The notes: generated by a model from the letters alone, not told the origin. Shown: positions 8,243 through 34,902, counted from the stretch's first letter. The stretch is 35,596 bases of DNA from Pseudomonadota bacterium (GCA_009839635.1 VXPJ01000063.1:1-35596), one strand, 5' to 3'. Translations and numbers: made by a program.

Positions 8243-9319
8243 GTGACCGATCAATCTCCAGGCAAGCCTGAAATGAGCAGCCCTTGGCAAGAATTCCTGG
8301 TGGCGCATGATGCCGTAATCGAGAACGGCCGGGTGACTTCCTTTGGACCCTCCGTACAGCCCTACCCCGGCACACAGGATACCTGTGTGTGCGAACTTAC
8401 ACCTTTAGGCCTGATCCGCGTAACCGGTGAAGAAACCCGGACCTTTCTACACAGCCAGTTTACCAATGACCTGGAGCAGGTCACGGCACATACAAGTCAG
8501 TTGAACAGCTATTGCAGTCCCAAAGGCAGGGTGTTGTCCATCTTCATGGTTTTCAAACATAACGGGGACTATTTCCTGGTCCTGCCAAAAGATGTCATCG
8601 AGATCACACTCAGAAAACTTGTCATGTACAAGCTCCGAAGCAAGGTAGACCTGTACGATGCGTCGGAACACTCCGTTTTATTCGGTGTGACCGGACCCGG
8701 GGTGGGACCTGCCTTCGAAAACCTGGGGATCGAGCTACCGCAAAAAGTATACGGCTGCACCCAGGAAAGCGGGGCCACGCTGGTCCGCCTGCCAAGCGAG
8801 AACACCAGGATTCTAGTCATGGCCGATGCTGAAACAGCAGTTTCTCTTTGCAGCCAGTTGTCTGAAAAGTTACCACTTGCAACGTTCCGCCTGTGGGACT
8901 TGCACGACATCTCGTGTGGAATTCCTCGGGTTACTGCGCTCACAAGTGAAGCGTTTACCCCGCAAATGACAAACCTGGAACTGATCAATGGTGTAAGTTT
9001 CAGCAAGGGATGCTACCCGGGCCAGGAAGTTGTTGCACGGACTCATTATCTCGGCAAACCAAACCGGCGTATGTACCGGGCCAGCATCGCCACCGAGCAA
9101 TTGCCCGAGCCAGGAACCAACGTTTTCTCTGCGGAAGAAGGTGATCAGCCCCTGGGGAAAGTTGTTGTCTCACAAATGGTATCTGCAGGACACGCCAGCG
9201 CACTCATCGTTTTGCGCACCCAAAAAGAAGAAGATCCGTGTTTGCACATCGGGTCAGCGGACGGACCTGCCATTTCGCTACAGGAGCTGCCCTACTCTTT
9301 GCAGTCTGGGCCTAGCTGA
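8243..9319 (+). CDS. ygfZ: Folate-binding Fe-S cluster repair / tRNA-modification protein YgfZ (GcvT family)
   Basis: FLHSQFTND, CSPKGR and the FSKGCYPGQEVVAR signature. Alternative start at ATG 8273. Confidence 0.93.
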   Translation: MTDQSPGKPEMSSPWQEFLVAHDAVIENGRVTSFGPSVQPYPGTQDTCVCELTPLGLIRVTGEETRTFLHSQFTNDLEQVTAHTSQLNSYCSPKGRVLSIFMVFKHNGDYFLVLPKDVIEITLRKLVMYKLRSKVDLYDASEHSVLFGVTGPGVGPAFENLGIELPQKVYGCTQESGATLVRLPSENTRILVMADAETAVSLCSQLSEKLPLATFRLWDLHDISCGIPRVTALTSEAFTPQMTNLELINGVSFSKGCYPGQEVVARTHYLGKPNRRMYRASIATEQLPEPGTNVFSAEEGDQPLGKVVVSQMVSAGHASALIVLRTQKEEDPCLHIGSADGPAISLQELPYSLQSGPS

Positions 9320-9491
9320 CAATCCAGGCGCTACGCTACTTGAGTCAGGAGAATGTTGATCAGCAACAGGGTTTATTCGGGCAATCAGATGCCTGTTTTG
9401 TTTGGCCATCGAAGCTATTAGCTACTTCTAAGATATGAATCATGAATGAGGACGGCATAATGTCATTCAACTGGCTTTTAGAATCAAACTC

Positions 9492-12400
9492 ATGACTGCT
9501 TTACAAACTCTCCTTGATGATTTCCGTTCCTCTGCGAAGACCGAGCGCGAGAAAGGCAGCTATTTTGAAGAACTGATTGTTCAATATCTTCAAGCTGAGC
9601 CACTCTATCTAGACCGGTACAGTAATGTATGGCCGTATGCCGAATGGGCTAGGGGGGAGGGTAAAGAGTATGGAAGAGGCGCCTCGGATGAAGGCATCGA
9701 TCTGGTGGCAAAGACTCGATGCACAGGTGACTATCATGCCATCCAGTGCAAGTTCTATGACCCCGACCACATCATCGCAAAATCTGACATCGATAGTTTT
9801 TTTACAGCCTCAGGGCAGAAGCCGTTTGTGCATCGGATTATCGTGGCCTCGACCGATAAATGGAATGAAAAAGCAGACAAGGCACTTGAGTATCAACAGC
9901 CCCCGGTCACCAAAATCGATTTAGCGGCATTGGAAGCTAGCTGGATTGACTGGTCGAAGTTTGCGCCTGGCAGAGCTCCCGCACTGAAAGAACAAAAGAT
10001 GCTGAGGCCTCACCAAAAAGAGGCCCTGAAGCAGGTGTGTGGCGGACTAAAAAATGCGGACCGGGGCAAGATGATCATGGCCTGCGGGACCGGCAAGACG
10101 TTCGTGGCCCTGAAAATCGCTGAACAGATGGCAGGCCCGGGAAAGCGAGTGTTGTTCATGGTCCCGAGCCTGGCCTTGATGTCGCAGGCCCTGACGGAGT
10201 GGACCCAGGAAAAAAGCATTCCCATGCACAGTTATGCTGTGTGTTCGGACACGCATGTTGGTAAAAAACGCAAGCGCTCCGAAGAGCGTGTGGAGATGCT
10301 TGTACACGAACTGCGGTATCCGGCTACGACCACTGCATCCAGTCTGGCAGCAGAAATGGAGGGACGCCATGACAAGAACCACATGAGCGTGGTGTTTTCG
10401 ACCTACCATTCCATTGACGTATTGCACAAGGCCCAAAGTGAATATGGGTTGGACGCTTTTGACCTGATCATCTGCGATGAGGCACATCGCACCACGGGAG
10501 CTACCTTCGAAGGTGACGATGAAAGTCATTTCGTCCGGGTGCATGACAATGCGTACATCCAAGGTGCGAAACGCCTCTACATGACCGCCACACCACGCAT
10601 CTATGGAGACGTCTCCAAAGCCAAGGCCGAAGACAGCGAGATCACCCTCTGTTCCATGGATGACAAGAATCTGTATGGCGAGGAACTGCATGTGCTCAGT
10701 TTTTCAGAAGCCGTACAGCGTGACCTGTTGGTGGATTACAAGGTCATCGTGCTGGCTATGGACGAAGCCCATATCAGCAAACGTCTGCAAAACCTGCTGG
10801 CCGATGCGGACAACCAGCTCCGCGTGGATGATGCAGCCAAAATCGTGGGCTGCTGGAAGGCCTTGAGCAAGGAAGACCTGCAGGATGAGTCAGTGTTGGA
10901 TACGACTCCCATGCGACGGGCCGTAGCCTTCTGTCAGGTCATTGAACATCAACCGGGTAAAACCAAAACCCACAAGGTGAGCTCAAAGCACATCGCCACC
11001 ATGTTCCAGCCCGTAGTGGAGGAATACCAAGCGCTGGAGGATACAGCATCCTCTGTGGTGTGTGAGGCTGAGCATGTGGATGGCAGCATGAATGCCAGCA
11101 TCAAGGAATCCAAGCTGGCCTGGCTCAAGTCTGACCCCCCTGAAAATCACTGTCGGATTCTGTCCAATGTGCGTTGCCTGTCCGAGGGCGTCGATGTCCC
11201 GGCCCTGGATGCCGTGCTGTTTCTGACCCCTCGCAACAGCCAGGTGGATGTCGTGCAGTCCGTGGGGCGGGTGATGCGCAAGGCCCCGGGCAAGGAGCGC
11301 GGGTATGTGATCCTGCCTGTGGTGATTCCAGCGGGTGTCCTACCCAATGAGGCGTTGAACGACAACAAGGCGTACCGGGTGGTCTGGCAGGTCCTGCAGG
11401 CACTGCGTTCACACGATGACCATTTTGATGCGTTCGTGAACAAGCTGGACCTGGTGGGTCAGGAGAACCGCAAGATGGAAGTGATTGCCATCACCGACAA
11501 TCTCCAAAAACCTTCAGCTAGGGAGAAGCGTACTGGCAAGGGTCACACCATAGGCAAGCAGGAAAAGACTTATCCCAAGGATGATCAACCCGCTCTCCAG
11601 TTCGAGGTAGGGGACATCGAACGGGCCATCTATGCCAAAGTGGTACAGAAGTGTGGCCGCAGGCTGTACTGGGAAGAATGGGCCACAGATATCGCAGAGA
11701 TTGCCCAAACCCACATCACCCGAATCACCACGATCGTCTGCAATGCAGCCAATGCTAGGGAAGCGAAAGCATTCCAGGCCTTTGCGGATGAGTTGCGGGA
11801 TGACCTGAACGACAGCATCGCGGACGAAGAAGTCATCGAGATGTTGGCCCAGCACCTGATCACCAAACCGGTGTTTGACGCGCTTTTTGAGGATGCCGAC
11901 TTCACGAGCCAGAACCCGGTATCCAAGGCCATGCAGGGTGTGCTGGATGTGCTGCAGGAACATCACTTGGAAAAGGAAGCCGAGACCCTGAACCGGTTCT
12001 ACCAGAGTGTCCGTATGCGGGCCTCAGGTATCGAAACGATAGAAGGAAAGCAGCGTATCGTGGTTGAGCTGTACGACAAGTTTTTCCGCAATGCCTTCCC
12101 GCGCATGACGGAGCGTCTGGGGATCGTGTACACCCCGATCGAGGTGGTGGACTTCATCATCCATTCTGTTAACGATTTGTTGCAGCAGGAGTTTGGGCAA
12201 AGGCTAGGGTCAAAAGGTGTACATATCCTGGATCCATTCGTTGGGACCGGCACCTTCATTACTCGACTGATGCAAAGCGGCCTGATCAAAACGGAAGAAT
12301 TGTCGCACAAGTACAAGCATGAAATTCACGCCAATGAGATTGTATTGCTGGCCTACTACATTGCGGCGGTCAATATCGAGACGGTATACCACAGCCTTGT

Positions 12401-14408
12401 CAGGAAAAAAGGTCTTGCGTATCAGCCTTTTGAAGGAATTTGTCTGACCGACACCTTCCAGATGTATGAGTCCGAGGACTTGCTGGATGCATTCCTGCCG
12501 GACAACTCGGAACGGCGTAAACGGCAGGTGGCCTTGCCCATCAAGGTCATCATGAGCAACCCGCCTTATTCAGCCGGACAGAGAAGTGCTAACGATAATG
12601 CACAAAATATTGCTTATCCATCGTTAGATAAGCGCATTGAGGAAACATACGCAAAGTATTCTGAAGCAGCGAACATACAAAACCTTTATGACAGCTACAT
12701 TCGGGCTATACGGTGGGGCTCGGACCGACTCGGTGATGCTGGAGTGATGGCCTATGTAACCAACGCCGGCTGGGTCGATGGGAATGCTATGGATGGGTTG
12801 CGCAAATGTCTGGTGGAAGAGTTTTCAAGCCTGTATGTATTTCATCTGAGAGGTAACCAGAGAACTTCGGGCGAAACATCTCGAAAAGAAGGTGGCAAAA
12901 TTTTTGGTGGTGGCAGTCGTGCACCAATCGCAATCACGGTGCTGGTGAAAAATTCCAATAGCAAGGAACCAGGCAAAATACATTTTCATGATATTGGGGA
13001 TTATCTCAGTCGCGAGGAGAAGCTCGATATCGTTCGAAAATTTGGAAACATCAAAGGGATAACTGAGCGAGGTGGCTGGCGAACTATTGTGCCTGATGAA
13101 AACCATGACTGGTTGAATCAGGTAGATCCAGACTTTGATCGATTTTTGGTCCTAGGTGAAAAGAAAAACAAGTCAGCGCTTCGAATGTTCAAGAATTTTT
13201 CCTTAGGTATAGGAACTAATCGCGATGCCTGGTGTTACAACGCATCCCGAAAAAAACTTGAGCAAAACATTCAAACGACAATAGACAACTACAACACAGA
13301 ACGGGAAAGGTATATTAAGGCTTCAGCTAACAAAAAGATTGATTTGGATGCTTTTGTTGATAATGACCCTACGAAAATTAAGTGGTCAAGCTCATTGAAA
13401 CAATACCTACAGAGAAAAGTATGTTTGAAGTTTACTGATGGAGAAGCACTGATTGCTACCTATCGGCCTTTTTCTAAGCAGTGGATGTATTACGAACGTC
13501 ATCTTAATCACCGAGTTGGACAAATGCCTAAGATTTTTCCGAATGCACAAGCGGAGAACCGGGTGATTTGTATTACAGGCATTGGTGCTACAGCTGGATT
13601 TTCTGCACTGATGGTAGATGCAATACCAAATCTACACACTTTAGACTCAGGACAATGTTTTCCCCTTAAGCTCTATAAAAAGACAGAAGAAGGTAACGAT
13701 GAAGATTTATTTGTGGGTCAAGACGATACACAGTACCAAGTTCAAGACGGAATCAGCGATGAAGCGCTAGCGCATTTTCAGACGGCATATCCTGGAGAAA
13801 CTATCAACAAAGAAGATATGTTCTATTATCTGTATGGAGTTTTACACTCAGAGGATTATCGCACTAGGTATCGAAATAATCTGATGAAACAACTGCCTCG
13901 GCTTCCTGTAATCTCGGACGTTACGGATTTTCGAGCTTTCTTGGCTGCTGGATATGCATTGACAGAATTGCACCTGGGGTATGAAACTGTCGATCCATGG
14001 CCAGTGACGATCAACGATGGGAAAGGTCTGCCAGATGGCATAGAACCTGAACGTCTATATCGTGTTGAAAAGATGAAATTTGGTAGAGGTCATGGTGCCA
14101 AAAAAGATCGGACCAGGATTGTCTACAATCCCTATATCACAATCTCTGGTATTCCCTTGGAGGCTTATGACTATGTTGTCAATGGCAAGCCTGCCATTCA
14201 GTGGGTGATGGAGCGCCAGTGTGTGAAAACTGACAAGGTCAGCGGGCTTGTAAACGATGCCAACCGCTATGCGATTGAGACGGTGGGAAGCCCCGCTTAT
14301 CCGCTGGAATTGCTACAACGCATTATTCGGGTATCCACGGAAACTTTAAAGGTGGTCGGAGCTCTGAATCCCGAAGCATGTGACCACGGATTAAGAAGGA
14401 ACTCATAA
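9492..14408 (+). CDS. Type ISP (single polypeptide) restriction-modification enzyme, LlaGI/LlaBIII family: Mrr-like nuclease, SF2 helicase, N6-adenine MTase, target recognition domain
   Basis: 1638 aa. N-terminal E...DEGIDLVAK...AIQCK (Mrr-type PD-(Q)xK); MACGTGKT, DEAH, MTATP, QSVGRVMRK (SF2 motifs); LGIVYTP, ILDPFVGTGTF (SAM binding), NPPY (m6A catalytic); C-terminal YRPF...YVVNGKPAIQWVMERQ typical of the LlaBIII-type TRD. Confidence 0.92.
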   Translation: MTALQTLLDDFRSSAKTEREKGSYFEELIVQYLQAEPLYLDRYSNVWPYAEWARGEGKEYGRGASDEGIDLVAKTRCTGDYHAIQCKFYDPDHIIAKSDIDSFFTASGQKPFVHRIIVASTDKWNEKADKALEYQQPPVTKIDLAALEASWIDWSKFAPGRAPALKEQKMLRPHQKEALKQVCGGLKNADRGKMIMACGTGKTFVALKIAEQMAGPGKRVLFMVPSLALMSQALTEWTQEKSIPMHSYAVCSDTHVGKKRKRSEERVEMLVHELRYPATTTASSLAAEMEGRHDKNHMSVVFSTYHSIDVLHKAQSEYGLDAFDLIICDEAHRTTGATFEGDDESHFVRVHDNAYIQGAKRLYMTATPRIYGDVSKAKAEDSEITLCSMDDKNLYGEELHVLSFSEAVQRDLLVDYKVIVLAMDEAHISKRLQNLLADADNQLRVDDAAKIVGCWKALSKEDLQDESVLDTTPMRRAVAFCQVIEHQPGKTKTHKVSSKHIATMFQPVVEEYQALEDTASSVVCEAEHVDGSMNASIKESKLAWLKSDPPENHCRILSNVRCLSEGVDVPALDAVLFLTPRNSQVDVVQSVGRVMRKAPGKERGYVILPVVIPAGVLPNEALNDNKAYRVVWQVLQALRSHDDHFDAFVNKLDLVGQENRKMEVIAITDNLQKPSAREKRTGKGHTIGKQEKTYPKDDQPALQFEVGDIERAIYAKVVQKCGRRLYWEEWATDIAEIAQTHITRITTIVCNAANAREAKAFQAFADELRDDLNDSIADEEVIEMLAQHLITKPVFDALFEDADFTSQNPVSKAMQGVLDVLQEHHLEKEAETLNRFYQSVRMRASGIETIEGKQRIVVELYDKFFRNAFPRMTERLGIVYTPIEVVDFIIHSVNDLLQQEFGQRLGSKGVHILDPFVGTGTFITRLMQSGLIKTEELSHKYKHEIHANEIVLLAYYIAAVNIETVYHSLVRKKGLAYQPFEGICLTDTFQMYESEDLLDAFLPDNSERRKRQVALPIKVIMSNPPYSAGQRSANDNAQNIAYPSLDKRIEETYAKYSEAANIQNLYDSYIRAIRWGSDRLGDAGVMAYVTNAGWVDGNAMDGLRKCLVEEFSSLYVFHLRGNQRTSGETSRKEGGKIFGGGSRAPIAITVLVKNSNSKEPGKIHFHDIGDYLSREEKLDIVRKFGNIKGITERGGWRTIVPDENHDWLNQVDPDFDRFLVLGEKKNKSALRMFKNFSLGIGTNRDAWCYNASRKKLEQNIQTTIDNYNTERERYIKASANKKIDLDAFVDNDPTKIKWSSSLKQYLQRKVCLKFTDGEALIATYRPFSKQWMYYERHLNHRVGQMPKIFPNAQAENRVICITGIGATAGFSALMVDAIPNLHTLDSGQCFPLKLYKKTEEGNDEDLFVGQDDTQYQVQDGISDEALAHFQTAYPGETINKEDMFYYLYGVLHSEDYRTRYRNNLMKQLPRLPVISDVTDFRAFLAAGYALTELHLGYETVDPWPVTINDGKGLPDGIEPERLYRVEKMKFGRGHGAKKDRTRIVYNPYITISGIPLEAYDYVVNGKPAIQWVMERQCVKTDKVSGLVNDANRYAIETVGSPAYPLELLQRIIRVSTETLKVVGALNPEACDHGLRRNS

Positions 14409-14417
14409 TGCAGTCGT

Positions 14418-17400
14418 CTAGACAACCTTTCGGTCCTTAGCAGACCACTGAAAAAATGAACGGTGTATTTGGTCATGAGCTTGGTAGATTCGTTCTCTGG
14501 CAGTATTGTGGAGCATCTCATAACCTTCCATCTTCTTCATCCAGTCCCGTTCTCCCCAGTTGCACCAGACCAGTACTTGGCGTGTATCGGTTAGGTAACG
14601 CCGAAGAAGATCGGCACGGATATATAAAAGACTGTGCCGATCTCCCTTCCACCCGTCCCCGGCCTCTCGATAGAGAGTTCCGGGTTTTCCCTTCGAGTCA
14701 TAGAAATCGATCTCGCGATTCTTGCTCGCTAGGCGAAGACGCTGAATTAAACTGGGTGCTGGAAGATTGAAGTCCGAGAAATCGTTGTGCAAAGAATGGT
14801 AAGACTCCCAGCCAAAGTGAATGTACGGGATTTCAATCCGAATGCCTGGGACGTGACGCATTTCCTGGCTCGGGCCGGATAGTTCGAAAGATAAGTTGCC
14901 CGTCTCCTCTCCTTCGCCAGTCATCAAATTTATTGTGACGTTGATTGGTGGAGTTTTCTCTTTCGTATTCACGCGCACTTGTTGATCAAGCGCTTCCTCG
15001 ATTTGTCGACGGTACCGGCCGTTCCGCTGGCAGAGGTGCCGCGCATAGTTCTGACGACGTCCGGCCTCCCCCGCGTAGAGATAGTGTTCAGTAACTCCTG
15101 AGGGGATCTTGCGATTCCCAGGGTATTGCACCGCAAGGAACTTCTCTTTGAAACTGCGTACATCTTTGCGCGCGATGAGCACTCCACGCAAGAAAGCAAA
15201 GAGCTCTCGATCGTGGCTCTCGTCGACTCCACAAATATGCCCTTCCACTAGCACCCACTCGCCTTGGTGTCCGTTAATCTCCGGGACCACGAGTAGCGGG
15301 CGCCAGTTCGGTGTGAACCCGCCCTCGACCCAGGCTTCAGTAGATACATCCGGATCGCCAAACAAGTCTGGAATTGGCGGAGTCCAGTGGGGTGGGTGCT
15401 TCGGAAAACTTGGATCAACCCCGCAATCGGGTGTTCTCTCCTCCACACGCCAATCCGGCAACTTTCTTTTGGAGTCACGTTCGCCCCACATCTCATAATA
15501 GGCAATCCACGAGTACTTCTTGCCGTACCGATCCACCTTCTTCTCATCGCGTACATTCCATGACGCATTGCTTATCTCGGCATCGATATCTTTGAACTGC
15601 TCTGCTCGGTACCCCAGGTCAAAAATGCGTCGCTCGATCTTCGCGCGGACCCGAGCGTAATCTGGATTCTTGTAGTCGTAGTTACCCCGGTCGGGGATCA
15701 GGCTTCCGATTGTGTAGTTGCCGAAATCCATTTGAATGGCATGACCAATAGCTTCTTCCACAGTTTGATCAGGCGTGCCGTCACTCGCAAATGCCGATGG
15801 GATGTTCGGAAACGGCGCAGCAAGGTTCCGGCTAGCGGTTTTTGGCAGTGCGACGCAACTGACGCGCTGAGCGATCTCGATAATGCCGAGCGCGTGGTCT
15901 CGCGTCAGGGCATGGTGGGTCGCATTGCACGCACGGGGTCCGAACATCTTTTGATAGAGGGTATTTGCCAGGTCCCCTAGCAGGGGCCGAAATTTGGGTG
16001 CTTCCTCCGAGTCCACCAAGGACATGGTTGCCCCGTACGCAGCTGCCAACATGCGTTCCGGCACATAAGGATCATTGAATTCAAGGCTTGTCACGACATG
16101 GGTGAAAAGCACATCGGGAAACCTTTCGCCGATCAACACAAGTGCCTTTGTTGCCAAGTCGCGGTCACTTCGAACGACCGTTGTAAGGACCAGGGAGAGC
16201 AGTACAACTAGCTCTGTCGCGGAGCGCTTCGTCATGTTCGCCTCGTTGAGCTTCCCCGCCCAGGTCAATAGACGGTGAATGGTGGGTGACACGTGCCTTC
16301 GCCGAAGGTATTCGGACCACTGAAGGTCACGGTCAGGCATCGGATAACGCGCCAGAAAATTGTAAAGACGACGTGCGTGGTACGGATGCTTTGGCTTCGT
16401 AGAAACGGCAGCCAATGCGTCGACCATTTGCTCCCACGCCCACGATCCGGCGTTCAGATAACAGTTGATGAGGTGCTGTGTACCCTCGGTGAATGCTGCA
16501 GGGTTGCGCCAAAACATCCCTTCGATGAAAGGGTCGAAGTATGCACTCGGATTCTGGGCTCTTTTAGGCAACACGAAGAACAGTTCACGCTGCTTGGGCG
16601 GAAGTTGCTTTCCCACTCGCTCCGGAAATTCGGTAATCAGCGCCTGCGCCCAGCCCGGCTCTTTGTACTCTTGGCCATATCGGTTTGATATCCTGAAGAT
16701 TTGGGCGAGTGGGGAATTTCCCGTAAAGCTGCGCTTGATCGTCGCAGCCGAAGAAACATCGAGATGCGCTTTCAGCAAATGCCGTGCGATCAAGTGATCG
16801 CTGAATCGTTGATAGGGGAGCCGAAAGACAATCCGTGACTTGTGCCCGGATTGCGTCGAGTACCAGACGACATCCTCTTCGATAAGGCCATTTATTCGTA
16901 GCGCCTCAAGAAGCTGACACCGCTGTACCGGTCTCAATGCCGGGTAGTTGGCGGCGACAATGCGATCGGCCTCCGATCGAAGAACATAGCTGCGCATCTT
17001 CACTGCCATGCACGGCGCAAAGCCGGCAACCCGTCTGTCGGCAATCTGATCGCTTCCCTTCAGCAATCCCCAGCACCCCTTGGTTTTCAGGCCATGTTGG
17101 CACTCAATCAATTTGCCAACACCATTGACAAACGATTCGAGAATATAAGTCATTCCCTTTTGACCTGAGGCTATGCCTGCGAATCCCTGTGCCAACTTGC
17201 TACCTGTAAGGTTTTGAAGTGATTGGCAGATCAGCTTCAGCGTAAGCGGTCGTGAGAATTCTCTGTCCAGCAGCGGCACTTCAGGCAGCAGAAGGTTGTA
17301 GTGCTGGAAGAAGGCGGCTTGGGCGTCAAATTCCTGACCGTCGAAACCGAGGTGTTTGACCTTGTGGAATTTCTCCAAGTCTTTCTGCTTGATCGCTATG

Positions 17401-18311
17401 GTCTCAAACGGTGTTCGGCACGTGACAATCAAACCAATGTGCGGGCGGTCTGCAATGAGCACTTGAAGGGTGGTAACGGCTTTTCGCCATTCACGACGAT
17501 TACCTTCGTTTACACCGTCCAGAATGACGACCGCTCGCTCTGCTTTCTTGCACATCAATTGTTCAAGTCGGTCGAATACCTCAGTTGCCGTGCGCCCTGT
17601 TTCAATCCGGGAACAGATTTCTGTGACAACGCTGCCTTGAAAGTTCTTGGCAAGAACGAGAATAGTGGCTTGGCCTTGACCGATTCGCTCTTTGGTGAAA
17701 TCGCACAGCAGATGTGTCTTGCCCGTGCCCCATTCGCCGCTAACCAAGAGATTCGGATCAGACAGGACTTTGAACGCCGGGCTCTGGGTGTACTACTTCT
17801 CATCTCGCACGATAGCCAAACAGCGGCCGATATCATTCATGTTTCTGCGGATAGTGTTGCGCTCAGACGAGTGCCCGTTATCTCTGTTGGCCCGCTGCAG
17901 CTTGGTCTCTTCCGCACGCCAGTGATCCATATCTGCTAATAGACCGGATTCAATGCTAGAGAGAAGATCCGACCACTCTCCTCCCGCATCTGCTTCGCCC
18001 ATGCGCAGTCGATCCATCATCGGTGACAAGAAGGCGCGTGCATCATCGGCTCGCTGCTTTAGCACATCGGCCCTCTGGCTGCAGTGCTTGGCATGGTCCC
18101 AAGCCTTGGAAAACTGATCGAGCACCGACTGAAATCTCACACGAGCGCCTGCTCCGCAGGCGACGTTCTCGATCGTGATGAAAAGTGATTGGATTTTGAG
18201 ATTCGGCGCGTCAGGATCGATCCCGGGCGTATATCTCTGTCCGGCTTGCTGAATCTGATCTTTGCTGAGCGCAGTCAGTGCTGCCAAGAATGAGTCGTAA
18301 GACGGAGGCAT
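14418..18311 (-). pseudogene. Avs2-like (AVAST) STAND/NACHT NTPase, ~1297 codons, interrupted by one in-frame TAG at 17793-17795 (nonsense allele or read-through candidate)
   Basis: ORFs 17793..18320 and 14418..17747 share a frame, with 45 nt between them. The join reads ...IVRDEK*YTQSPAFKVLSDPNLLVSGEWGTGKTHLLCD. Walker A GEWGTGKT, Walker B VILDGVNE, sensor IVTCR, RPLTLKLIC, and C-terminal DFGNYTI...DRYGKKYSWIA motifs that I associate with Avs2-type proteins. ATG 18311 has an AGGGG RBS 9 nt upstream. The family call is from motif recall. Confidence 0.7.
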
Positions 18312-18486
18312 CGAACGCAACCCCTGATTAGAGTCTTTCTCAATGTAAGTTGATCAATTGTATTAATAAGATTTTCACAAGCTGCAACGGTACCAATTTC
18401 AGATAAATCAAATAGTCAATAGTTTTGCTAGCTCTGAAAAATGCAGTGTGCCTGCGGAGCCAGATATCGCGTCTCGATGCAGACCT

Positions 18487-19995
18487 TCAGCGGTCCTCGC
18501 CCTGGCTGCCTGATTCCGGCTTCATCTGCGGAAACAGGATGACATCACGGATGTTGGGTGAATCAGTCAGCAGCATGACAAGGCGATCCACCCCGATACC
18601 CTCCCCTGCAGTAGGAGGCAGACCATATTCCATGGCACGGACGTAATCGGCATCGTAACTCATGGCCTCCTCATCACCGCTTTCCTTCTCTGCGGCCTGC
18701 AATTTGAAGCGTTCAGACTGGTCCTCCGGGTCGTTCAGTTCAGAGAACCCATTGGCTATTTCCCTTCCGCCCACAAAAAACTCGAACCTGTCTGTCACCG
18801 ATGGATCATTGTCATTTTTCCGAGCAAGTGGAGAAACATCAGTTGGAAATGCCGTGATGAACGTAGGGTCCCGAAGATGTGCTTCGACGGTCTTTTCAAA
18901 GATCTCGATTTGCACTTTGCCAAGCCTGTAGTTTGACTCGATTGGAACTCCCAGTTGCGTAGCTGCCCTTTTCGCACCAGCAAGCGAATCCAGCTGATCC
19001 GAATTCAGTACGGAATTGAAATGCAATATGGACTCTTTCACGGTCATCCGATGAAAAGGTTTGGAGAAATCGAAGGTCTCGTCCCCGTATTGCACAGACA
19101 GCTTACCCAGTACTTCGCTGCAAACCCGACGCATCATCTTCTCGGTGAGGACCATCAGATCGCGAAAATCAGAGTACGCCTGGTAAAACTCCAGCATAGT
19201 AAATTCGGGGTTATGCTGGGTGGACAATCCCTCATTGCGAAAATTCCGGTTGATCTCAAAAACCCGTTCCACGCCCCCAACCACCAGCCGTTTCAGATAT
19301 AACTCGGGCGCCACACGCATGTACAAAGGTCTCCCAAGCGCGTTGTGATAGGTCTTGAACGGCCTTGCAGCAGCACCTCCTGCAATGGTTTGCATCATAG
19401 GTGTCTCGACTTCAACAAATTTACGCCTGACCAGAAATTGTCGCAGGCACCGGATAATTGCGGTGCGCTTTTCCAAGACCTCACGCGAACTCCGGTTCAT
19501 GATCAAGTCGACATAGCGTTGCCGGTACCGCTGCTCCTGATCAGTCAATCCATGGAATTTTTCAGGCAAGGGCCGCAGTGACTTGGTCAGCAACACAGCG
19601 GACTGGATCTTTACATACAGATCTCCCTTGCCGGATTTGTGCACAGGGCCGGTCACGCCCACGATGTCCCCAATATCCCAAGCATCGACATCCTGAACGA
19701 GTGATTCAGATGAACTCTTGCGATCAAGATAGGCTTGTATGCGGCCTGTCATATCCTGCAACACCAGGAAGGAAGCTCGCTTTCCCATGATGCGCGCACC
19801 GATGGCCACACACTTATTCAGCTCAACGAGCTCATCCTTTGATTTCTCCGAAAGCGTGTCCTGCAGATTCCGGGCAAAAGCGTTTCTTCGAAAGTGATTC
19901 GGAAAGGCGGTACCTTTCTTTCTCAGCACATCCAGCTTTGCACGCCTTTGGGCTATCAGCCTGTTCTCGTCCTGAGCCTGGTCTTCTTCCTGCAT
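18487..19995 (-). CDS. lysS: Lysine--tRNA ligase (class II)
   Basis: 502 aa; RYRQRYVDLI, VETPMM, GGAAARPF, APELYLKRL, FRNEG, HNPEFT, YGLPPTAGEGIGVDRL. Confidence 0.98.
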   Translation of the reverse strand: MQEEDQAQDENRLIAQRRAKLDVLRKKGTAFPNHFRRNAFARNLQDTLSEKSKDELVELNKCVAIGARIMGKRASFLVLQDMTGRIQAYLDRKSSSESLVQDVDAWDIGDIVGVTGPVHKSGKGDLYVKIQSAVLLTKSLRPLPEKFHGLTDQEQRYRQRYVDLIMNRSSREVLEKRTAIIRCLRQFLVRRKFVEVETPMMQTIAGGAAARPFKTYHNALGRPLYMRVAPELYLKRLVVGGVERVFEINRNFRNEGLSTQHNPEFTMLEFYQAYSDFRDLMVLTEKMMRRVCSEVLGKLSVQYGDETFDFSKPFHRMTVKESILHFNSVLNSDQLDSLAGAKRAATQLGVPIESNYRLGKVQIEIFEKTVEAHLRDPTFITAFPTDVSPLARKNDNDPSVTDRFEFFVGGREIANGFSELNDPEDQSERFKLQAAEKESGDEEAMSYDADYVRAMEYGLPPTAGEGIGVDRLVMLLTDSPNIRDVILFPQMKPESGSQGEDR

Positions 19996-20000: not shown

Positions 20001-21099
20001 CTAAACCCCGCTTTTGAGGCTTGCCTCGATAAAAGTGTCAAGATTGCCGTCGAGCACAGCTTGTGTATTTCCAGTTTCAACAGAGGTGCGCAGGTCCTTG
20101 ATACGTGACTGATCAAGCACGTATGAACGGATCTGGCTGCCCCACCCGATATCTGCTTTGCTTTCTTCCAGGGCCTGCTTTTCACTGTCACGTTTCTTGA
20201 CTTCCATTTCGTACAGCTTGGCCCTGAGCTGTTTCATGGCAGTTTCCTTGTTTCTGTGCTTGGAGCGGTCATTCTGACATTGTGTCACAACCCCGGTTGG
20301 CAGGTGTGTGATGCGCACGGCAGACTCGGTCTTGTTTACGTGTTGGCCGCCTGCGCCACTTGCACGGTACACGTCGATGCGCAAATCGGCGGGATTGATT
20401 TCGATATCAATATCGTCATTCACCTCAGGGGATACAAATACTGCCGCAAAGGAGGTGTGCCTGCGGTTACCAGAATCAAACGGTGATTTGCGCACCAGCC
20501 GATGCACACCGGTCTCCGTACGAAGCCACCCGAATGCATACTCGCCCTCGAACCTGACCGTCGCACTCTTGATACCGGCCACCTCACCGGGAGAAACCTC
20601 GATCAACTCGGTTGTAAAATCCTTTTGCTCGCCCCATCGAAGGTACATTCGCAATAGCATCTCTGCCCAGTCCTGGGCTTCCGTACCTCCTGAGCCGGAC
20701 TGTATGTCCAGAAAAGCATTGCTGGCATCCATCTCACCCGAGAACATCCGGTTGAACTCGAGCTTGGCGACCCTTGACTCCAGTTCCGACAGGTCTTCTT
20801 CCACAGCCTGTATGGTTTCCGGGTCTTCCTCCTCTATGGCCAGCTCAAGCAAACTGCCTGCATCCGCAAGCCCCTCTTCGACATGTTCGATCGTCTGTAC
20901 GATTGCTTCAAGCTCCGTGCGCTGCTTGCCTAGCTTTTGCACAACATCAGGCTGATTCCAGATCTCTGGGCTCTCTAGCTCCTTGTTGAGCTCATGCAAG
21001 AGTTCGCACTTGTCATCGTAGTCAAAGATACCCCCTTAGATTCATGGTGCGCGCATGCAGGTCATCGATCAGATTTTGTAGTGCATTGGTTTCCATCAT
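20001..21099 (-). CDS. prfB: Peptide chain release factor 2, translated via a programmed +1 frameshift (25 + 340 = 365 aa)
   Basis: First frame from ATG 21099 is [25 protein letters not shown]-stop; the +1 frame continues [17 protein letters not shown] into the 20001..20999 ORF, which has the SPF and GGQ motifs. Directly upstream of lysS. Confidence 0.97.
21021..21036 (-). promoter_or_regulatory. prfB +1 frameshift cassette (internal Shine-Dalgarno plus slippery CTT-TGA-C)
   Basis: Minus strand reads AGGGGG-TAT-CTT-TGA-C, the canonical RF2 autoregulatory site. Confidence 0.97.
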
Positions 21100-21313
21100 G
21101 TTTTCCGGGCGGGTTCAGGCCACGATATGATAGCGTATAAAGGGTACCAGCAATAGGCGTTGACACGCGCCAGATTCGACAGGCCGGAACCCTGTCCGAA
21201 GACCGTTGCTGCAGGATTCGATACTTGCTGTAGCTCATTCAGGCCCATGGTCACAGGTGATATATACTTTGACCTCGGCAATTTGTACGGATCACCCTAT
21301 CTGCATCACGGGC

Positions 21314-22738
21314 ATGAGCGAACACATCCTATTTCTGACTGGCAAACTTGCGGAAAAAAGTTTGCGCCGCGTCCTGGAGTCCATGCAACCGACGGATTTC
21401 ACCTACGAAGTGCGCCAGCTTGGGGTCAGTGTAGCTGCATTGATGACTACCAAGCTGATCGGAAAGCGCCTTGGCGACACGGGCCAGGCAAACCGGATTA
21501 TCATCCCTGGTCGCTGCCGTGGTGACATCGAAGCTCTTTCCGACTCCCTGAAGACCACAGTGGAACGTGGTCCCACAGAACTCAAGGACCTGCCCGCATA
21601 CCTGGGTCAGTCCGTGAAAAAAACAGACCTTCGTGCCTATAGCGTGCAAATTTTTGCGGAAATTGTCGATGCCCCGAACATGCCGGTCGGGGAGATTGTC
21701 AGGCGGGCGCAAACCTATCAGCAGGATGGTGCCAACGTCATCGACGTCGGCTGCTTGCCCGGGGTGTCCTTCCCACACCTTGCAGAATCCGTACAGGCGC
21801 TCAAAGCTGAGGGTTTCAAGGTCAGCATCGACTCGCTGGAACCCCGCGACCTGATTGCCGGAGCCAACGCCGGAGCCGATTACCTCCTGAGCCTGAGTGA
21901 AAAGAGCCTGTGGGTTGCAGAAGAAGTGGACGCAATACCGATCGTGATTGGCAGCCCGCCGAACAACGCCAGATCGCTGTACCGGTCCATGCGCACCTTG
22001 TTAAAGCATGGCAAGCTGTTCATTGCCGATTCGATCCTCGATCCGATTCATTTCGGTTTTACGGAATCTATCGTCCGTTATCGCAATTTGCGCAAGCTTT
22101 TTCCGAATGCCGAGATCATCATGGGCACTGGAAATTTGACAGAACTCACGCATGCAGACTCGGCAGGCACCAGCGCCCTTCTGGCCGGCATCATGTCAGA
22201 ACTGGACATCCAGCACTTGCTGGTCACGGAGGTCAGCGACCACTGTCGGCACGCGGTACGCGAAGCAGACCTTGCACGGCGCATCATGCATGCCGCAAAA
22301 ATTGACAACGTTCCCCCCAAGGGCTATGACAGCGGCCTGATGGGCCTGCATGAATGCGAGCCCTTCCCCTATACTGCCGAGGAAATCGAGGAATTAGCCG
22401 CGCAGGTCAAGGACCCGAACTACCGCATACAACTCAGCAGTAAAGGCATTCACACCTACAACCGCAACGGCATGCAAACCACCACGGACCCGTACGAAGT
22501 TTACCCGCACCTAGATATAGAAAACGACAGTGGCCACGCCTTCTACCTGGGCGTCGAACATGCACGCGCCCAGATCGCATGGCAGCTTGGCAAAAGGTAC
22601 GAGCAGGATGAAGAGTTGAACTGGGGAGTGGCTACCCGCAAGGAGGCGGAAGATCTCAGCCGATACAAGGCGGCGGGTTCAACCATGCACACCCGAAAGG
22701 CCCGCAAAGCCAGACGCAAAGACAGAGGGAAAAACTAG
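21314..22738 (+). CDS. orf20: Dihydropteroate-synthase-like methanopterin biosynthesis protein (Orf20 of H4MPT clusters)
   Basis: HILFLTGKLAE, VAALMT, PGRCRGD, ERGPTELKDLP, IFAEIVDAP, DPIHFGF, MGTGNLTELTHADS, HAFYLGVE. Start placed at ATG 21314 (MSEHIL) rather than TTG 21206. Confidence 0.85.
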   Translation: MSEHILFLTGKLAEKSLRRVLESMQPTDFTYEVRQLGVSVAALMTTKLIGKRLGDTGQANRIIIPGRCRGDIEALSDSLKTTVERGPTELKDLPAYLGQSVKKTDLRAYSVQIFAEIVDAPNMPVGEIVRRAQTYQQDGANVIDVGCLPGVSFPHLAESVQALKAEGFKVSIDSLEPRDLIAGANAGADYLLSLSEKSLWVAEEVDAIPIVIGSPPNNARSLYRSMRTLLKHGKLFIADSILDPIHFGFTESIVRYRNLRKLFPNAEIIMGTGNLTELTHADSAGTSALLAGIMSELDIQHLLVTEVSDHCRHAVREADLARRIMHAAKIDNVPPKGYDSGLMGLHECEPFPYTAEEIEELAAQVKDPNYRIQLSSKGIHTYNRNGMQTTTDPYEVYPHLDIENDSGHAFYLGVEHARAQIAWQLGKRYEQDEELNWGVATRKEAEDLSRYKAAGSTMHTRKARKARRKDRGKN

Positions 22739-22740
22739 CA

Positions 22741-23319
22741 ATGCCATTTATCAGGGAATGCATCGTTACCACACTCAGGGAAAACGACGATGTACATATC
22801 GCCCCCATGGGGATTCACGAAGACGGAAAACGCCTGATCATCCTGCCATTCAAGCCGTCCACCACGCTGGACAACCTGGAGAGACAGGGAACTGCAACGC
22901 TGAACTACACAGACGATGTGCGCATCTACGCCGGCTGTCTGACCGGTCGCAGCGACTGGCCGACCTGCAGCACAGAAATCATCCAGGGGGTACGCCTTGA
23001 AGATTGTCTGGCCCACACAGAACTGGAAGTGACGGGCAAGGTGGATGACCCGGTGCGGCCAAGATATTCCTGCAAGACCGTGCACGAGGCGATTCATGCA
23101 CCTTTTCATGGCTATAATCGTGCACAGTCAGCAGTGATTGAGCTTGCTATCCTGGTCAGTCGATTGCACATGCTGCCCCAGGCAAGGGTCCACCAGGAAA
23201 TCGAGTACCTGAGAACATCCGTGGACAAGACTGCAGGTCCTCGAGAGCAGGAGGCCTGGGACTGGCTGATGACGAAAGTGGACAGTTTTCAGACATCAAA
23301 GAAGGAGAGCCGGCGATGA
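22741..23319 (+). CDS. orf19: DUF447 family protein (Orf19 of H4MPT clusters)
   Basis: IRECIVTT, HIAPMG, PFKPSTTLDNL, GYNRAQSAVIELAILVSRL, KTAGPREQEAW; canonical position between orf20 and orf22. Confidence 0.8.
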   Translation: MPFIRECIVTTLRENDDVHIAPMGIHEDGKRLIILPFKPSTTLDNLERQGTATLNYTDDVRIYAGCLTGRSDWPTCSTEIIQGVRLEDCLAHTELEVTGKVDDPVRPRYSCKTVHEAIHAPFHGYNRAQSAVIELAILVSRLHMLPQARVHQEIEYLRTSVDKTAGPREQEAWDWLMTKVDSFQTSKKESRR

Positions 23320-24032
23320 CCGGGATGCTTGCAAGCGTTCGGAACATGGAAGAGGCAGATCTGGCATGCCGGGGAGGTGCCGATATCGTCGACCTGAAGG
23401 AACCGCGTCATGGTGCCCTGGGGGCCGTTCCCTTGGATACCATACACCGCATCGTTGACGAATTATGGGAAAAATGTCTGATCAGTGCCACCATCGGCGA
23501 CATGCCTGCCAACCCTTTCTCGATCAAGGAACAGGTCATGAAAACTGCAGAAGCCGGGGTCGATTACGTAAAGGTTGGCCTGTTCAGTCAACGCCATGTT
23601 GAAGATTGTCTGCCCACTCTGGCATCCTGTTCCCGCAAGGGCATCGCGATCATTGCAGTCCTGTTTGCGGATACAGAATTCGACACCGATTATGTCATCC
23701 GCAGCGTAAGGCATGCCGGGCTGAAAGGCGTCATGCTGGACACTGCAGGTAAAGGTTCGGGCAGCCTGCTCCAGCACCGGAACATTTTCCAGCTTGAATA
23801 TTTCGTCAATCGTGCACGCAAGTCCGGTCTACTTACGGGGCTGGCAGGCTCTTTGACAATAGAACATATCTCGACACTGATACGAGTTGCTCCCAACTAC
23901 ATCGGGTTTCGCACCGCGCTTTGTTCGGACAAAGAGAGGGTCGGCTGCGTGGACAGGGAGGCCTTGCGGGAAGTCAGAAGAGCGATTCCAGTGACTCCGG
24001 AACTCCCTTATAGGCGAATCAGTTCCTCATGA
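23316..24032 (+). CDS. orf22: (5-formylfuran-3-yl)methyl phosphate synthase, MfnB homolog (DUF556; Orf22)
   Basis: MLASV, GADIVDLKEP..GALGA, SATIGD, GVDYVKVG, GVMLDTAGK, GLAGSL, IGFRTALC; ATGA overlap with orf19. Confidence 0.88.
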   Translation: MTGMLASVRNMEEADLACRGGADIVDLKEPRHGALGAVPLDTIHRIVDELWEKCLISATIGDMPANPFSIKEQVMKTAEAGVDYVKVGLFSQRHVEDCLPTLASCSRKGIAIIAVLFADTEFDTDYVIRSVRHAGLKGVMLDTAGKGSGSLLQHRNIFQLEYFVNRARKSGLLTGLAGSLTIEHISTLIRVAPNYIGFRTALCSDKERVGCVDREALREVRRAIPVTPELPYRRISSS

Positions 24033-26527
24033 GAGTCCGCGGGGGCTGTGGTCTCAAGCAACAGAGGGATCACGCTGAAGGTTGCGAACAGGGAGATCAG
24101 CATGGCAATGCTGGTCAGCATGCCGAAATAGATCGAAGGGAAAAAGCTGGACAGTACCAGTACAACGAACCCCAGTGAGATGGTGATCGAGGTGAAGTAA
24201 AGTGCCTTGCCAGCCGTAGTCTGTGCGGTACGGATGGCATCGAGGTTGCTGCTTTTGCGCGCACGTTCCCTCTTGTAGCGATGAATGTAGTGAATGGCAT
24301 AGTCAACACCAACCCCAACGGTGATGGCTGCAGTAGTGATCGTCATGATATCGAGGGGAATCCCTGACATGCCAATCAGTCCCAAGACGAAAAGTACAGT
24401 GAACATGTTCGGTAGTGCACCGATCAGGGCCAGCTTCAAGCTGCGAAACAGGAATGCAAGCACGATCAGAATACAGGCAAACACCGTGCCCAGAGTCAGG
24501 ATTTGCGAGCGAAACAGACTTTGCAAGACATTGTTGTACAGCACGCTGATCCCGGTTAGCCTGAAATCCTCGTTGTCCTTGACAAAATTACCGGCAATGT
24601 CGACGCGTATCTTGTTCAGCAGGTCGTTCCTGATCAGGGAAGGGTCCGAGTCCCTGATACGTGCAAGAATCCTGGCCTGGCTCCCATCCGTTGAAACGTA
24701 GGGAGCGATCATGGCCTGTTTCACGTTTTCCGGCACTTTCGAATAAACCATAGACAGGTGGAAGTCCTCGAGTTCTTCCCCATCGTTTACCAGCCGCATC
24801 ACCTCTTCGATACTGGAAAGAGACAATACCTTACCCATCTCTGGTAACCCCTCGAGATACTTGTGAATTTTATCGATCTTTCTGATCCCGATCCTGTTGT
24901 ACCAGTAGCTTGTAGCGGTAAAATCATCTTGCGTGTCTTCAAGCCCTGCAAGATAGTCATCAAACTCAGCGAATTCGTCGTCCTCCTCGCCCATGTCGAT
25001 CTCCGGTGCGGTTTCCCGTGTGCCATCCAGGATCACCTCCAGCAGGGAAATACCGCCCAACTCCTGATCGATCACAGCCAGCCCCTGGTAGATGTCCGTG
25101 GATTTCTTGAAGTAATCGATAAACCGGTTTTCCACCGTGAGCTGACCAATCCCCGCCAAGCTAAACAGGAACATCCCGGTCAGCACGGCAGCTGCGATTA
25201 TCTTGTTTCCAAGAACCAGATTGAGCACCCGCTTAAGTAATACAGAGGAGGTGTCCTTCTGCAGTTGCCTGGGTCTGGGCTCGAACAGTGTTATCAGTGC
25301 AGGCAACACCGTGAAGGTGAGCAAAAACGCGCAGAAAAGGCCCAGGATCATGATGTGACCGAAAGTGATGATCGGCCGTATGTCGCTGACCGTCAGCGAG
25401 AAAAAGGCAATCACGGTAGTCAGGACCATGTACAGGCAAGGGGTAATGATTTGCGAAGCTGCCGTCCTGGTGTTTTCCTTGGTGCCTGCATCCGGATTGA
25501 GGGACTGGATTTCCTGGTAGCGAATGATCACGTGTATCGATAAAGCGATCGAGAAGATGAGCAGCAAGGCCACAAAATTCGATGAGATCACGGTCAACTG
25601 ATAATCCATCAACCCGATCAACCCGGAAACAAGCAGAACACTCAACACGGCGCACACCAGTGCCAGGAACACCCAGGCCAAACTCCTGAAAAAGATGAAC
25701 AGCACAATCACCATGATTACGGCAATGGCTGCACCAAAGGTTGTCAGATCCTTGCGAACAAAATCCTTCATGTCATTGTTCACCAGAGGGGCGCCTGCCA
25801 GAAAAAACTGGCCGGTATCCTTGAGCTCCAAAAGCTCGGCACGCATGGAAGTGAGAATCTGCCTGTAGTGTTCGTTGCTGAGCTTCCTTTGCTGGCGGAT
25901 CTCGGCACGGATTGAATCCAGCTTGTCTTTTTCCGCCTCGGCAATTGACCCATCGTCCTGCTTTTGCAAAAGCGCGTACCTCTGCTCCTGCAAGTCCCAC
26001 AGCGCCTCGTTTTTGTAAAAACCCACATGGATGGCGGTCAGACCCAGGTTCTGGTTCACCAGATTGTCCAGGTAGATGGAACTCGTAGTGAATTCCTCCC
26101 TTGCCTTGTCGATATCCACCTGGGGCGACAGCAGGTTGGGATACTCTATGTTGCCGGTCTTTTCATCCTTGAGCGGCTGCATGAGCAGCGGCACATTGGT
26201 GATCGAGGTTACCGCTTCGACACGTTCAAGATTTTCGAACTTCTGCACAAGCCCATCGATCAACAGGATCGTCTCCTGGCTCAACATTTCGGCATGAGGC
26301 TTGTAGCCGACAATCAGAAATTCATCCGTACCGTAATGACGGTGCACCTCCCGGTAGTATTTGAGATCCGGGTCGCTTTCCAGCATCAGCGAGTCCGCAG
26401 AGGAATCAATGTCCAGTTTTTTGATATACGGACTTGTTACTGCTACCAGTGCAAGTACGCAAAGAATCACGGGGTAGGGATAGTTCGTGACGATGCGAAA
26501 GAAAGCGCTTACCGAGGACTGTAGCAT
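24008..26527 (-). CDS. MMPL/RND-superfamily predicted exporter
   Basis: 839 aa; two repeats of one TM, a large periplasmic loop and ~5 TMs; DSSADSL, TTVIAFFSL, ENRFIDYFK, GVGVDYAIHYIHRY, F-x-PSIYFG. Overlaps the orf22 3' end by 25 nt (convergent). Confidence 0.88.
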   Translation of the reverse strand: MLQSSVSAFFRIVTNYPYPVILCVLALVAVTSPYIKKLDIDSSADSLMLESDPDLKYYREVHRHYGTDEFLIVGYKPHAEMLSQETILLIDGLVQKFENLERVEAVTSITNVPLLMQPLKDEKTGNIEYPNLLSPQVDIDKAREEFTTSSIYLDNLVNQNLGLTAIHVGFYKNEALWDLQEQRYALLQKQDDGSIAEAEKDKLDSIRAEIRQQRKLSNEHYRQILTSMRAELLELKDTGQFFLAGAPLVNNDMKDFVRKDLTTFGAAIAVIMVIVLFIFFRSLAWVFLALVCAVLSVLLVSGLIGLMDYQLTVISSNFVALLLIFSIALSIHVIIRYQEIQSLNPDAGTKENTRTAASQIITPCLYMVLTTVIAFFSLTVSDIRPIITFGHIMILGLFCAFLLTFTVLPALITLFEPRPRQLQKDTSSVLLKRVLNLVLGNKIIAAAVLTGMFLFSLAGIGQLTVENRFIDYFKKSTDIYQGLAVIDQELGGISLLEVILDGTRETAPEIDMGEEDDEFAEFDDYLAGLEDTQDDFTATSYWYNRIGIRKIDKIHKYLEGLPEMGKVLSLSSIEEVMRLVNDGEELEDFHLSMVYSKVPENVKQAMIAPYVSTDGSQARILARIRDSDPSLIRNDLLNKIRVDIAGNFVKDNEDFRLTGISVLYNNVLQSLFRSQILTLGTVFACILIVLAFLFRSLKLALIGALPNMFTVLFVLGLIGMSGIPLDIMTITTAAITVGVGVDYAIHYIHRYKRERARKSSNLDAIRTAQTTAGKALYFTSITISLGFVVLVLSSFFPSIYFGMLTSIAMLISLFATFSVIPLLLETTAPADSHEELIRL

Positions 26528-26589
26528 CAGCTCATTTCATCCATTAGTATTTTTGTACACGGGTACGCAAACCGGTGCAAAATCCCGGA

Positions 26590-30592: not shown

Positions 30593-30601
30593 CGATATGT
30601 G

Positions 30602-31306: not shown

Positions 31307-31376
31307 TTTTTGATTTCGGCGGGACTGACGGTGAACGCCTGTACCGAAAAAGCCCGGCAACACGCAAACGTGGGGC

Positions 31377-31408
31377 AAAAAAATGCCCCGCAGGTGCGGG
31401 GCATTTTT
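31377..31408. terminator. Bidirectional Rho-independent terminator between convergent orf17 and fae
   Basis: AAAAAAA-TGCCCCGC-AGGT-GCGGGGCA-TTTTT: a GC-rich perfect stem with an A-tract on the left and a T-tract on the right. Confidence 0.88.
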
Positions 31409-31429
31409 ACAGCTTGGCTGAAAAGCTAA

Positions 31430-31957: not shown

Positions 31958-32052
31958 TATATTTTTCTCCTGTTCTATTTTTAGTTGTCGACAAGCTACA
32001 GACTATCTGTCCGCCCGTATCCTTTTGGAAAATGGAATTGTGCTAGCGCGTC

Positions 32053-32061
32053 ACTATACCA
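32053..32061 (-). promoter_or_regulatory. Possible extended -10 promoter element for fae
   Basis: Minus strand TG-G-TATAGT, one mismatch to TGnTATAAT, about 95 nt upstream of the fae ATG; no good -35 seen. Confidence 0.35.
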
Positions 32062-32065
32062 CGCT

Positions 32066-32914: not shown

Positions 32915-33012
32915 TGCATCAAGTCACAACTGGACAAAAGAAGGAAGTGATCTGAAGCAGGCTGGTCTTTCGTACTGAAAATACTGGCAAAACGGTGGTC
33001 ACCGCTTAAATT

Positions 33013-33927: not shown

Positions 33928-33929
33928 GA

Positions 33930-34880: not shown

Positions 34881-34902
34881 TATTCATTCCCTTGTCCAAA
34901 AA

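Follow-up and report, generated by a model that had tools for sequence, protein, structure and literature searches.

A probable young amber nonsense allele in an Avs2-family gene of a sponge-associated bacterium

The Avs2-family gene examined here is interrupted by a single amber codon, and this interruption is very probably a young nonsense allele, created by a GAG to TAG change in a recently acquired gene and giving a null allele that is possibly still polymorphic. The gene lies in a contig of a Pseudomonadota bacterium (GCA_009839635.1, VXPJ01000063.1), all 35,596 nucleotides of which are referred to as the window. A preliminary description of this DNA had offered a recent nonsense mutation in an otherwise intact gene as the simplest reading, and that reading is supported both by what relatives carry at the interrupted position and by the state of the remainder of the gene.

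When the minus strand from 14400 to 18320 is translated with TAG read as X, it forms a single open frame with only two TAG codons, the internal and the terminal one. The absence of any other stop or frameshift among the 1297 codons, which the preliminary description had asserted, is thus borne out, as are its coordinates and its reading of the codons around the amber (GAT GAG AAG TAG TAC ACC CAG); the strand, which it left unstated, is minus. An ORF listing splits the gene into two entries, 17793..18320 (175 aa from a TTG, or 172 aa from the ATG at 18311) and 14418..17747 (1109 aa from a TTG). The start at ATG 18311 coincides with the first residue in 81 of the best 120 of 710 homologs. The internal TAG is placed 19 codons ahead of G192, the Walker A glycine, and in this interval the sole in-frame ATG, GTG or TTG is the TTG at 17747, 46 nt past the stop and three codons ahead of the G192 of GEWGTGKT. 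Nothing purine-rich precedes this TTG, so the earlier statement that it lacks a Shine-Dalgarno sequence and falls inside the Walker A strand is correct. A search for a promoter-like site on the minus strand near TTG 17747 or the amber codon found none.

Table 1. Features of the interrupted Avs2-like gene (positions in the window)
Feature	Position	Strand	Basis
Amber codon TAG, codon 173 of 1297 counted from ATG 18311; Glu (GAG/GAA) in homologs	17793..17795	-	Sequence; homolog column and codons; second assembly
Upstream piece, 172 codons from ATG 18311, all-helical, corresponding to the Avs2 'helical extension' before the ATPase	17796..18311	-	PADLOC alignment; AF2 model
Shine-Dalgarno-like AGGGG, 9 nt upstream of ATG 18311	18321..18325	-	Sequence
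Downstream remainder, codons 174-1297: predicted STAND NTPase, alpha-helical TPR-like region and beta-rich C-terminal sensor	14421..17792	-	PDB 9o4e_A; AF2 and Foldseek
Walker A/P-loop GEWGTGKT, residues 192-199	17715..17738	-	Translation; aligns to GKAGIGKS of EcAvs2
TTG, only in-frame candidate start after the amber, without a Shine-Dalgarno-like stretch	17745..17747	-	Sequence
Terminal TAG of the Avs2-like gene	14418..14420	-	Translation
Next in-frame stop, TGA, five codons past the terminal TAG	14403-14405		Translation

Family, domain make-up and genomic setting

The Avs2-like identity suggested in the preliminary description has held up well. Six Avs2 models of PADLOC match the translated frame, the best being PDLC02164 (E 2.9e-162, query 15-871 to profile 179-999 of 1504), and the only match among solved structures in a sequence search is to EcAvs2 (9o4e_A; query 169-870 to chain 319-989, E 3.2e-60), with a second stretch of the same chain aligned further on (query 889-943 to chain 1102-1154). 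The Avs2 equivalog model of NCBIfam, NF041813, matches query 20-815 with 455.7 bits, under its equivalog cut-off of 1000. Judged by these profiles, the predicted protein is a member of the Avs2 family as PADLOC defines it but not an NCBI equivalog.

The central part aligns to the EcAvs2 ATPase through both GEWGTGKT (192-199) and VVILDGVNEG, giving a STAND NTPase with Walker A and Walker B motifs; the Pfam NACHT match is weak (E 9.5e-4, under cut-off). Residues 330-870 align to the helical region of EcAvs2, as expected for the TPR-like helical sensor of an Avs2 protein. For residues 870-1297, the AF2 model (pLDDT 89.6, pTM 0.85) is beta-rich with many strands, and its only significant Foldseek match is to the SeAvs3-terminase complex 8dgc (chains B and A; E 2.4e-8, prob 1.00, TMq 0.47), which points to the beta-rich C-terminal sensor that is shared with Avs3. 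This region is also C-terminal in proteins of 1200-1530 aa (150 listed of 873 clusters at E <= 0.001). By homology, the intact protein would be a terminase sensor that oligomerises on binding and serves in phage defence.

The N-terminal 172 residues correspond to the helical extension that precedes the ATPase in Avs2 proteins, both by profile alignment, from query 15 onwards, and by the AF2 model, which is all-helical with six helices (pLDDT 87.6). A fold search with this model gave no PDB match at E <= 1e-3 and only generic helix bundles at E of at least 0.24; the fold library held entries released up to April 2026, and 9o4e is absent among the fold matches though present in the PDB sequence set. 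The last modelled helix, residues 148-171, ends at the stop, so that the amber appears to sit precisely at the junction of helical extension and ATPase. No Pfam family matches within residues 1-172, and no N-terminal effector domain, whether nuclease, protease, SIR2 or other, was found in the approximately 14 residues ahead of the helical-extension homology. Because the profile homology starts at query 15, which is PADLOC position 179, a counterpart of the effector is absent.

The lack of an effector is common to a subfamily of proteins of approximately 1297 aa. These are 69-86% identical across several proteobacterial genera, are likewise without a recognisable effector domain and start directly with the helical extension, the 81 of the best 120 (of 710) noted above beginning at query residue 1. 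Among 18 homolog loci no conserved partner or accessory gene was found beside the homolog. The neighbours vary from locus to locus, including TIR, integrase, HsdM, HsdR, PIN, AAA_13, AbiEi, M78 peptidase and housekeeping genes, and are often defence or mobile-element genes, an arrangement that fits a single-gene, horizontally mobile system. An effector-less form of Avs2 is not described in those portions of the Avs literature that were available here. A subfamily with neither effector nor partner gene raises the question of how such an Avs2 acts after sensing.

One short segment of the N-terminal piece stands out in an alignment of 36 sequences. The stretch AG-x-RYTPGIDP-x-APNL (residues 23-38; 18198-18245, minus strand) has near-invariant A23, G24, R26, Y27, P29, P36 and N37, and is kept even in sequences whose identity across the N-terminal 172 residues is as low as 12-28%. 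In the model it occupies the least confident stretch, which is non-helical (pLDDT 57-64). It may be a binding motif.

The gene is part of a lineage-specific insert of approximately 9.1 kb (9328-18433), placed between a ygfZ-like gene (8243-9319) and lysS (18487-19995). These two genes are adjacent, and the insert absent, in all three congeners examined, and the Avs2-like gene was found in none of 40 relatives, a set that includes 12 members of the genus. This distribution marks the insertion as recent. Its other content is a Type ISP restriction-modification gene (9492-14408, plus strand), convergent with the Avs2-like gene on the minus strand and apparently intact, with 1638 aa and the Pfam families Mrr_cat_2, ResIII, ISP_coupler, N6_Mtase and Type_ISP_C. 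No integrase or tRNA was found in the 9.1 kb insert. The insert junctions carry the short imperfect repeats CTAGCTGACAAT and CTAGCTCTGAAAAAT.

Two other features of the window may be recorded. On the minus strand, prfB contains the classical programmed +1 frameshift site (21021-21027, TAT CTT TGA C after AGGGGG), which joins a short first frame, starting near 21097, to the 332-aa ORF at 20001-20999. The region 21206-35466 holds a cluster typical of tetrahydromethanopterin-linked C1 transfer and cofactor synthesis, with Fae, MCH, 4-HFC-P synthase, DUF447, DUF6513, ATP-grasp, RimK-like and CitG-like members.

The amber codon in relatives, assemblies and genome

The preliminary description had proposed that close homologs be aligned to see whether the stop recurs, and a sense codon is found everywhere that was examined. 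A search of a collection of 5.8 billion proteins, in which 8000 candidates were scored, gave 710 homologs at E <= 1e-3. The best 120 of these are 69-86% identical to the query, mostly 1290-1300 aa long and uninterrupted, and come from gammaproteobacterial MAGs and from Dyella, Lysobacter, Pseudomonas, Polynucleobacter and Sideroxyarcus. At the stop column all of these best 120 of 710 have a sense residue, namely E in 110, D in 4, K in 2, A in 2, G in 1 and Q in 1. Homolog DNA was taken from 10 loci of species genomes and 11 of metagenomes; where the motif could be located (19 of 20 loci), the codon is GAA in 10, GAG in 8 and AAT in 1, and no internal stop occurs in the 20 homolog frames matched by tblastn. 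Searching with the 172-aa piece retrieved 29 other short N-terminal proteins, whose ends are scattered between positions 56 and 294 of the query, several with out-of-frame tails; not one of the 29 ends at residue 172. The latest start among the best 120 homologs corresponds to query residue 132, upstream of the stop. A stop conserved at the same codon, as expected for programmed read-through, is therefore found in none of 120 proteins, 19 loci or 29 fragments.

Family members broken at other places do exist. The homolog of a Pseudohongiella MAG (L005:6664-8368) has a 1.7 kb insertion after approximately residue 221, carrying a 555-aa ORF on the opposite strand and probably representing a mobile element, and another homolog (L018) has a frameshift near residue 970.

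The base itself is found in a second assembly. The genome is a metagenome bin of 156 contigs, 96.6% complete, and the amber allele is present in one sample only; a search of public runs found no RNA run that contains the stretch. Logan contigs of the public sponge metagenome run X1 contain 96% of the sampled words of 16300-19300, and one of them, of 5510 nt and mean word depth 27.1, spans 17154-19000 with no differences, the amber included. This identity argues that the amber is neither an artefact of the original assembler or of polishing nor an error of low coverage, though the Logan contig is a second assembly of probably the same reads and so not independent data, and minor alleles are invisible in contigs. 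The Logan contigs of X1 are interrupted twice within the gene, at 15393-15500 and 17077-17153, both away from the amber; strain variation or branching of the assembly may lie behind these breaks. A 310-nt piece in run X3 comes from a diverged relative, and its middle part, across the stop, is too unlike the query to align. The protein collection has the exact 172-aa product from a single contig, the 5510-nt one of X1.

The rest of the gene is without signs of decay. Compared with the best 120 homologs (of 710), the query has 12 private residues, all of them outside the 374 columns with conservation of 98% or more. At those columns, homologs of comparable nearest-neighbour distance have 0-8 private changes. 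Pairwise dN/dS (Nei-Gojobori) is 0.21-0.26 between the query and six intact homologs and 0.22-0.37 between intact pairs. The comparison of the two sides of the stop that had been suggested earlier gives 0.14-0.41 upstream and 0.09-0.24 downstream, with no detectable relaxation. Since relaxation is undetectable, the stop is likely to be young relative to the separation from the nearest relative, at 86% identity.

TAG serves as a normal stop codon in this genome, closing 263 of the 987 open frames that reach 300 codons. Of 27 ORF entries examined within the window, 6 end in TAG: two through the internal and terminal TAGs of the Avs2-like gene, and four at the ends of Pfam-supported genes (DUF1249, sdhD, prfB and DUF6513), in keeping with the earlier view, based on prfB, orf20 and DUF1249, that TAG is an ordinary stop elsewhere in the window. 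In the bin (96.6% complete), no tRNA with a CUA anticodon is present among the 33 tRNAs identified by ARAGORN, and pylS has no match over cut-off. The RNA around the amber folds no better than shuffled sequences (z +1.39). The search for decoding machinery or a stimulatory signal, that is, a suppressor or pyrrolysine tRNA, pylS, loss of RF1 or an RNA structure, thus found none at this completeness.

The case of RF1 needs some care, since prfA (TIGR00019) is not found in the bin. The prfA family is matched in all 24 relatives searched, in 23 of them over cut-off, and in three congeners prfA lies between a 425-aa gene on one side and a prmC-like gene and a 478-aa gene on the other. In the bin, contig C34 ends and contig C114 begins within these two flanking genes, so that prfA and the prmC-like gene fall between the two contigs. 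The absence of prfA is thus explained by an assembly gap, and loss of RF1 was rejected. A naive gene census of this bin would wrongly score RF1 as lost.

A screen for in-frame stops was made against 400 kb of a close relative (22% of that genome, G001), with filtering by third-position divergence. Its 184 coding-like matches (72,870 codons) contain 20 stops, none of which is mid-gene: each falls within 82 codons of the beginning of a stop-to-stop frame, among the final 6 codons, or where a contig ends. The dozens of 'stops' seen before filtering were discarded. They fall in 28 ORFs, of which 21 lack any Pfam family; the 7 with a Pfam match have the stop ahead of the domain, except ParB, where it is at a contig end. 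Such 'stops' are mostly shadow frames or 5' leaders. Both genomes, of approximately 56% GC, contain very long open shadow frames at the G001 loci concerned (L034-L053) and their counterparts in the bin, for example of 935, 862 and 758 codons. These have no Pfam family and no excess of third-position divergence, and can be mistaken for genes and for 'interrupted genes'.

The end of the gene also bears on how the amber is understood. The preliminary description had pointed out that the terminal TAG is followed by TGA five codons later, so that amber read-through would add few residues. This is correct as sequence, and does not stand as an argument: 11 of 15 homolog loci also end in TAG, the most frequent terminal stop of the family, and have their next in-frame stop at a variable distance of 1-68 codons. 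The TGA 'back-up' is therefore not a designed feature.

Explanations for the interruption and its meaning

The following course of events would account for these observations. An Avs2-family STAND NTPase would have entered the lineage on the 9.1 kb islet together with the Type ISP restriction enzyme. A single G to T transversion would then have converted the GAG codon of the conserved Glu173 to TAG, the direction of change being that suggested by the homologs. Translation would halt after 172 residues, leaving a helical fragment with neither NTPase nor sensor, and the remaining 1124 codons, without a usable start, would not be expressed, so that the defence protein would probably not be made. 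The null allele would be either fixed or segregating in the symbiont population, and the undecayed state of the rest of the gene suggests that the change is very recent. This fits the glutamate in 110 of the best 120 homologs (of 710) and the GAG or GAA in 18 of 19 loci. Low-level read-through, or re-initiation at TTG 17747, may still occur. The intact remainder is, however, equally to be expected of a gene that is still under selection, and it is from this that the rival readings draw most of their strength.

One such reading is that the T at 17795 arose through faulty sequencing or assembly, or is a minority allele that was chosen in assembly while most cells carry a sense codon. The fragmented state of a 156-contig metagenome bin, the two Logan breaks within the gene, which may reflect strain variation, and the single contig on which the exact 172-aa product is known would all be in keeping with this. 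However, a second assembler gave the same letters over 17154-19000 at a depth of 27.1, where a substitution error would not be the majority, and mid-gene stops are not in excess elsewhere in the bin. We consider this reading unlikely; the consensus error raised as a possibility in the preliminary description is made improbable by the second assembly at approximately 27x, though that assembly was built from the same reads. A quite different possibility is that the base is real and the gene works in two pieces, the 172-residue helical domain and a 1109-residue NTPase-sensor from TTG 17747 being made separately and cooperating. The position of the stop, exactly at the boundary of helical extension and ATPase, is suggestive here, as the end of the last modelled helix at residue 171 would put the break where a functional split is best tolerated, and TTG 17747, only 46 nt downstream, could be reached by re-initiating ribosomes. 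Against this, the TTG has no Shine-Dalgarno-like sequence and a start there would cost the protein most of the strand that leads into the P-loop (LLVSGEWGTGKT), and the minus strand yielded no promoter-like site. The family does not favour a split either: no homolog is split here, the short fragments end elsewhere, and even the latest start among the best 120 homologs, at residue 132, is upstream of the stop. Separate, cooperating products are thus extremely improbable.

The amber could also act as a throttle, with full-length Avs2 being made by low natural read-through or when UAG decoding is altered, for example by a phage suppressor tRNA or by interference with RF1. Avs proteins are toxic when over-expressed, and a low level of expression would therefore be plausible; toxicity of an Avs21 construct is mentioned in one report (PMC13581612). 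The gene is otherwise perfectly intact, and read-through at its natural terminus would add only about 4 residues before the TGA. The comparative evidence stands against such gating, since the stop occurs at this position in none of the best 120 proteins (of 710), none of 19 loci and none of 29 fragments, as does the failure to find a CUA tRNA among the 33 tRNAs or an RNA around the stop that folds better than shuffles (z +1.39); the terminal TAG, moreover, is ancestral in the family, with the next stop 1-68 codons off. A limited literature search for amber-gated defence genes, for suppressor tRNAs together with premature stops in defence systems, and for pseudogenised defence systems found nothing that bears on gating. 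Amber gating, which the preliminary description had put forward as a speculative alternative, is disfavoured by the sense codon in all homologs examined, by the lack of a CUA tRNA, pylS or RNA structure among what was found, and by the use of TAG as a normal stop, and a leaky or gated amber is very unlikely. Its more elaborate form, for which there is only the slightest probability, is that the amber is maintained because it keeps a self-toxic, effector-less Avs2 silent until a phage perturbs UAG decoding or, more mildly, that a reversible null allele segregates in a balance of cost against protection. Were the amber so maintained, infection by a phage that carries suppressor tRNAs or blocks RF1 would itself complete the defence protein. 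Causes other than the four readings share the small probability that these leave.

If the preferred reading of a young nonsense allele is correct, the locus illustrates how quickly defence genes may be gained and lost: an islet between housekeeping genes of a small-genome sponge associate would already have had one of its two systems knocked out. It would thereby add one case to what is recorded of defence-gene turnover in symbionts. For annotation, the two ORFs are better treated as one pseudogene than as a 'hypothetical protein' and an 'ATPase'. The interruption would gain greater importance only if the stop proved to be conditional, for which no support was found here.

Comparison with known systems

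The locus resembles ordinary nonsense pseudogenes of accessory defence genes in that one point substitution has put a stop into a dispensable gene gained by horizontal transfer, and no differences from such pseudogenes were detected.

KpAvs2 of Klebsiella pneumoniae belongs to the same family by the Avs2 profiles, and likewise combines a STAND NTPase and a long C-terminal sensor in one polypeptide. Defence by KpAvs2 depends on the Mrr endonuclease at its N-terminus, and lysine 337 is its Walker A lysine (PMC11564622). Like EcAvs2, it extends approximately 150-180 residues further at the N-terminus than the present protein. The present protein differs in that its Walker A lysine is at 198 and the nuclease domain is absent.

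The likeness to SeAvs3 bound to the PhiV-1 terminase (8dgc) is confined to the predicted fold, that of residues 870-1297 matching the C-terminal part of SeAvs3. Identity is only 10-11%, and Avs3, unlike the present protein, has an N-terminal nuclease and a different TPR domain. A C-terminal sensor common to Avs2 and Avs3 is described in a published account of EcAvs2 (PMC13601566), and the match of the 870-1297 model to 8dgc agrees with this sharing.

A further comparison is with EcAvs2 (PDB 9o4e), an AVAST type 2 anti-phage protein that senses the terminase. According to the same account, the N-terminal effector of EcAvs2 is joined through a helical extension to the STAND ATPase, which is followed by a TPR domain and a beta-rich C-terminal sensor, with the extension, TPR domain and C-terminal sensor jointly binding the ATPase domain of the phage large terminase (PMC13601566). 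The present protein differs from EcAvs2 in that its N-terminus is approximately 150-180 residues shorter, leaving the effector without a counterpart, and in that the gene is interrupted by a TAG. Homology to EcAvs2 sets in where the helical extension ends, covers the STAND ATPase and the TPR region, and is found again in the C-terminal part, and the order of the predicted parts is the same in both: helical extension, ATPase, helical repeats and beta-rich C-terminal sensor.
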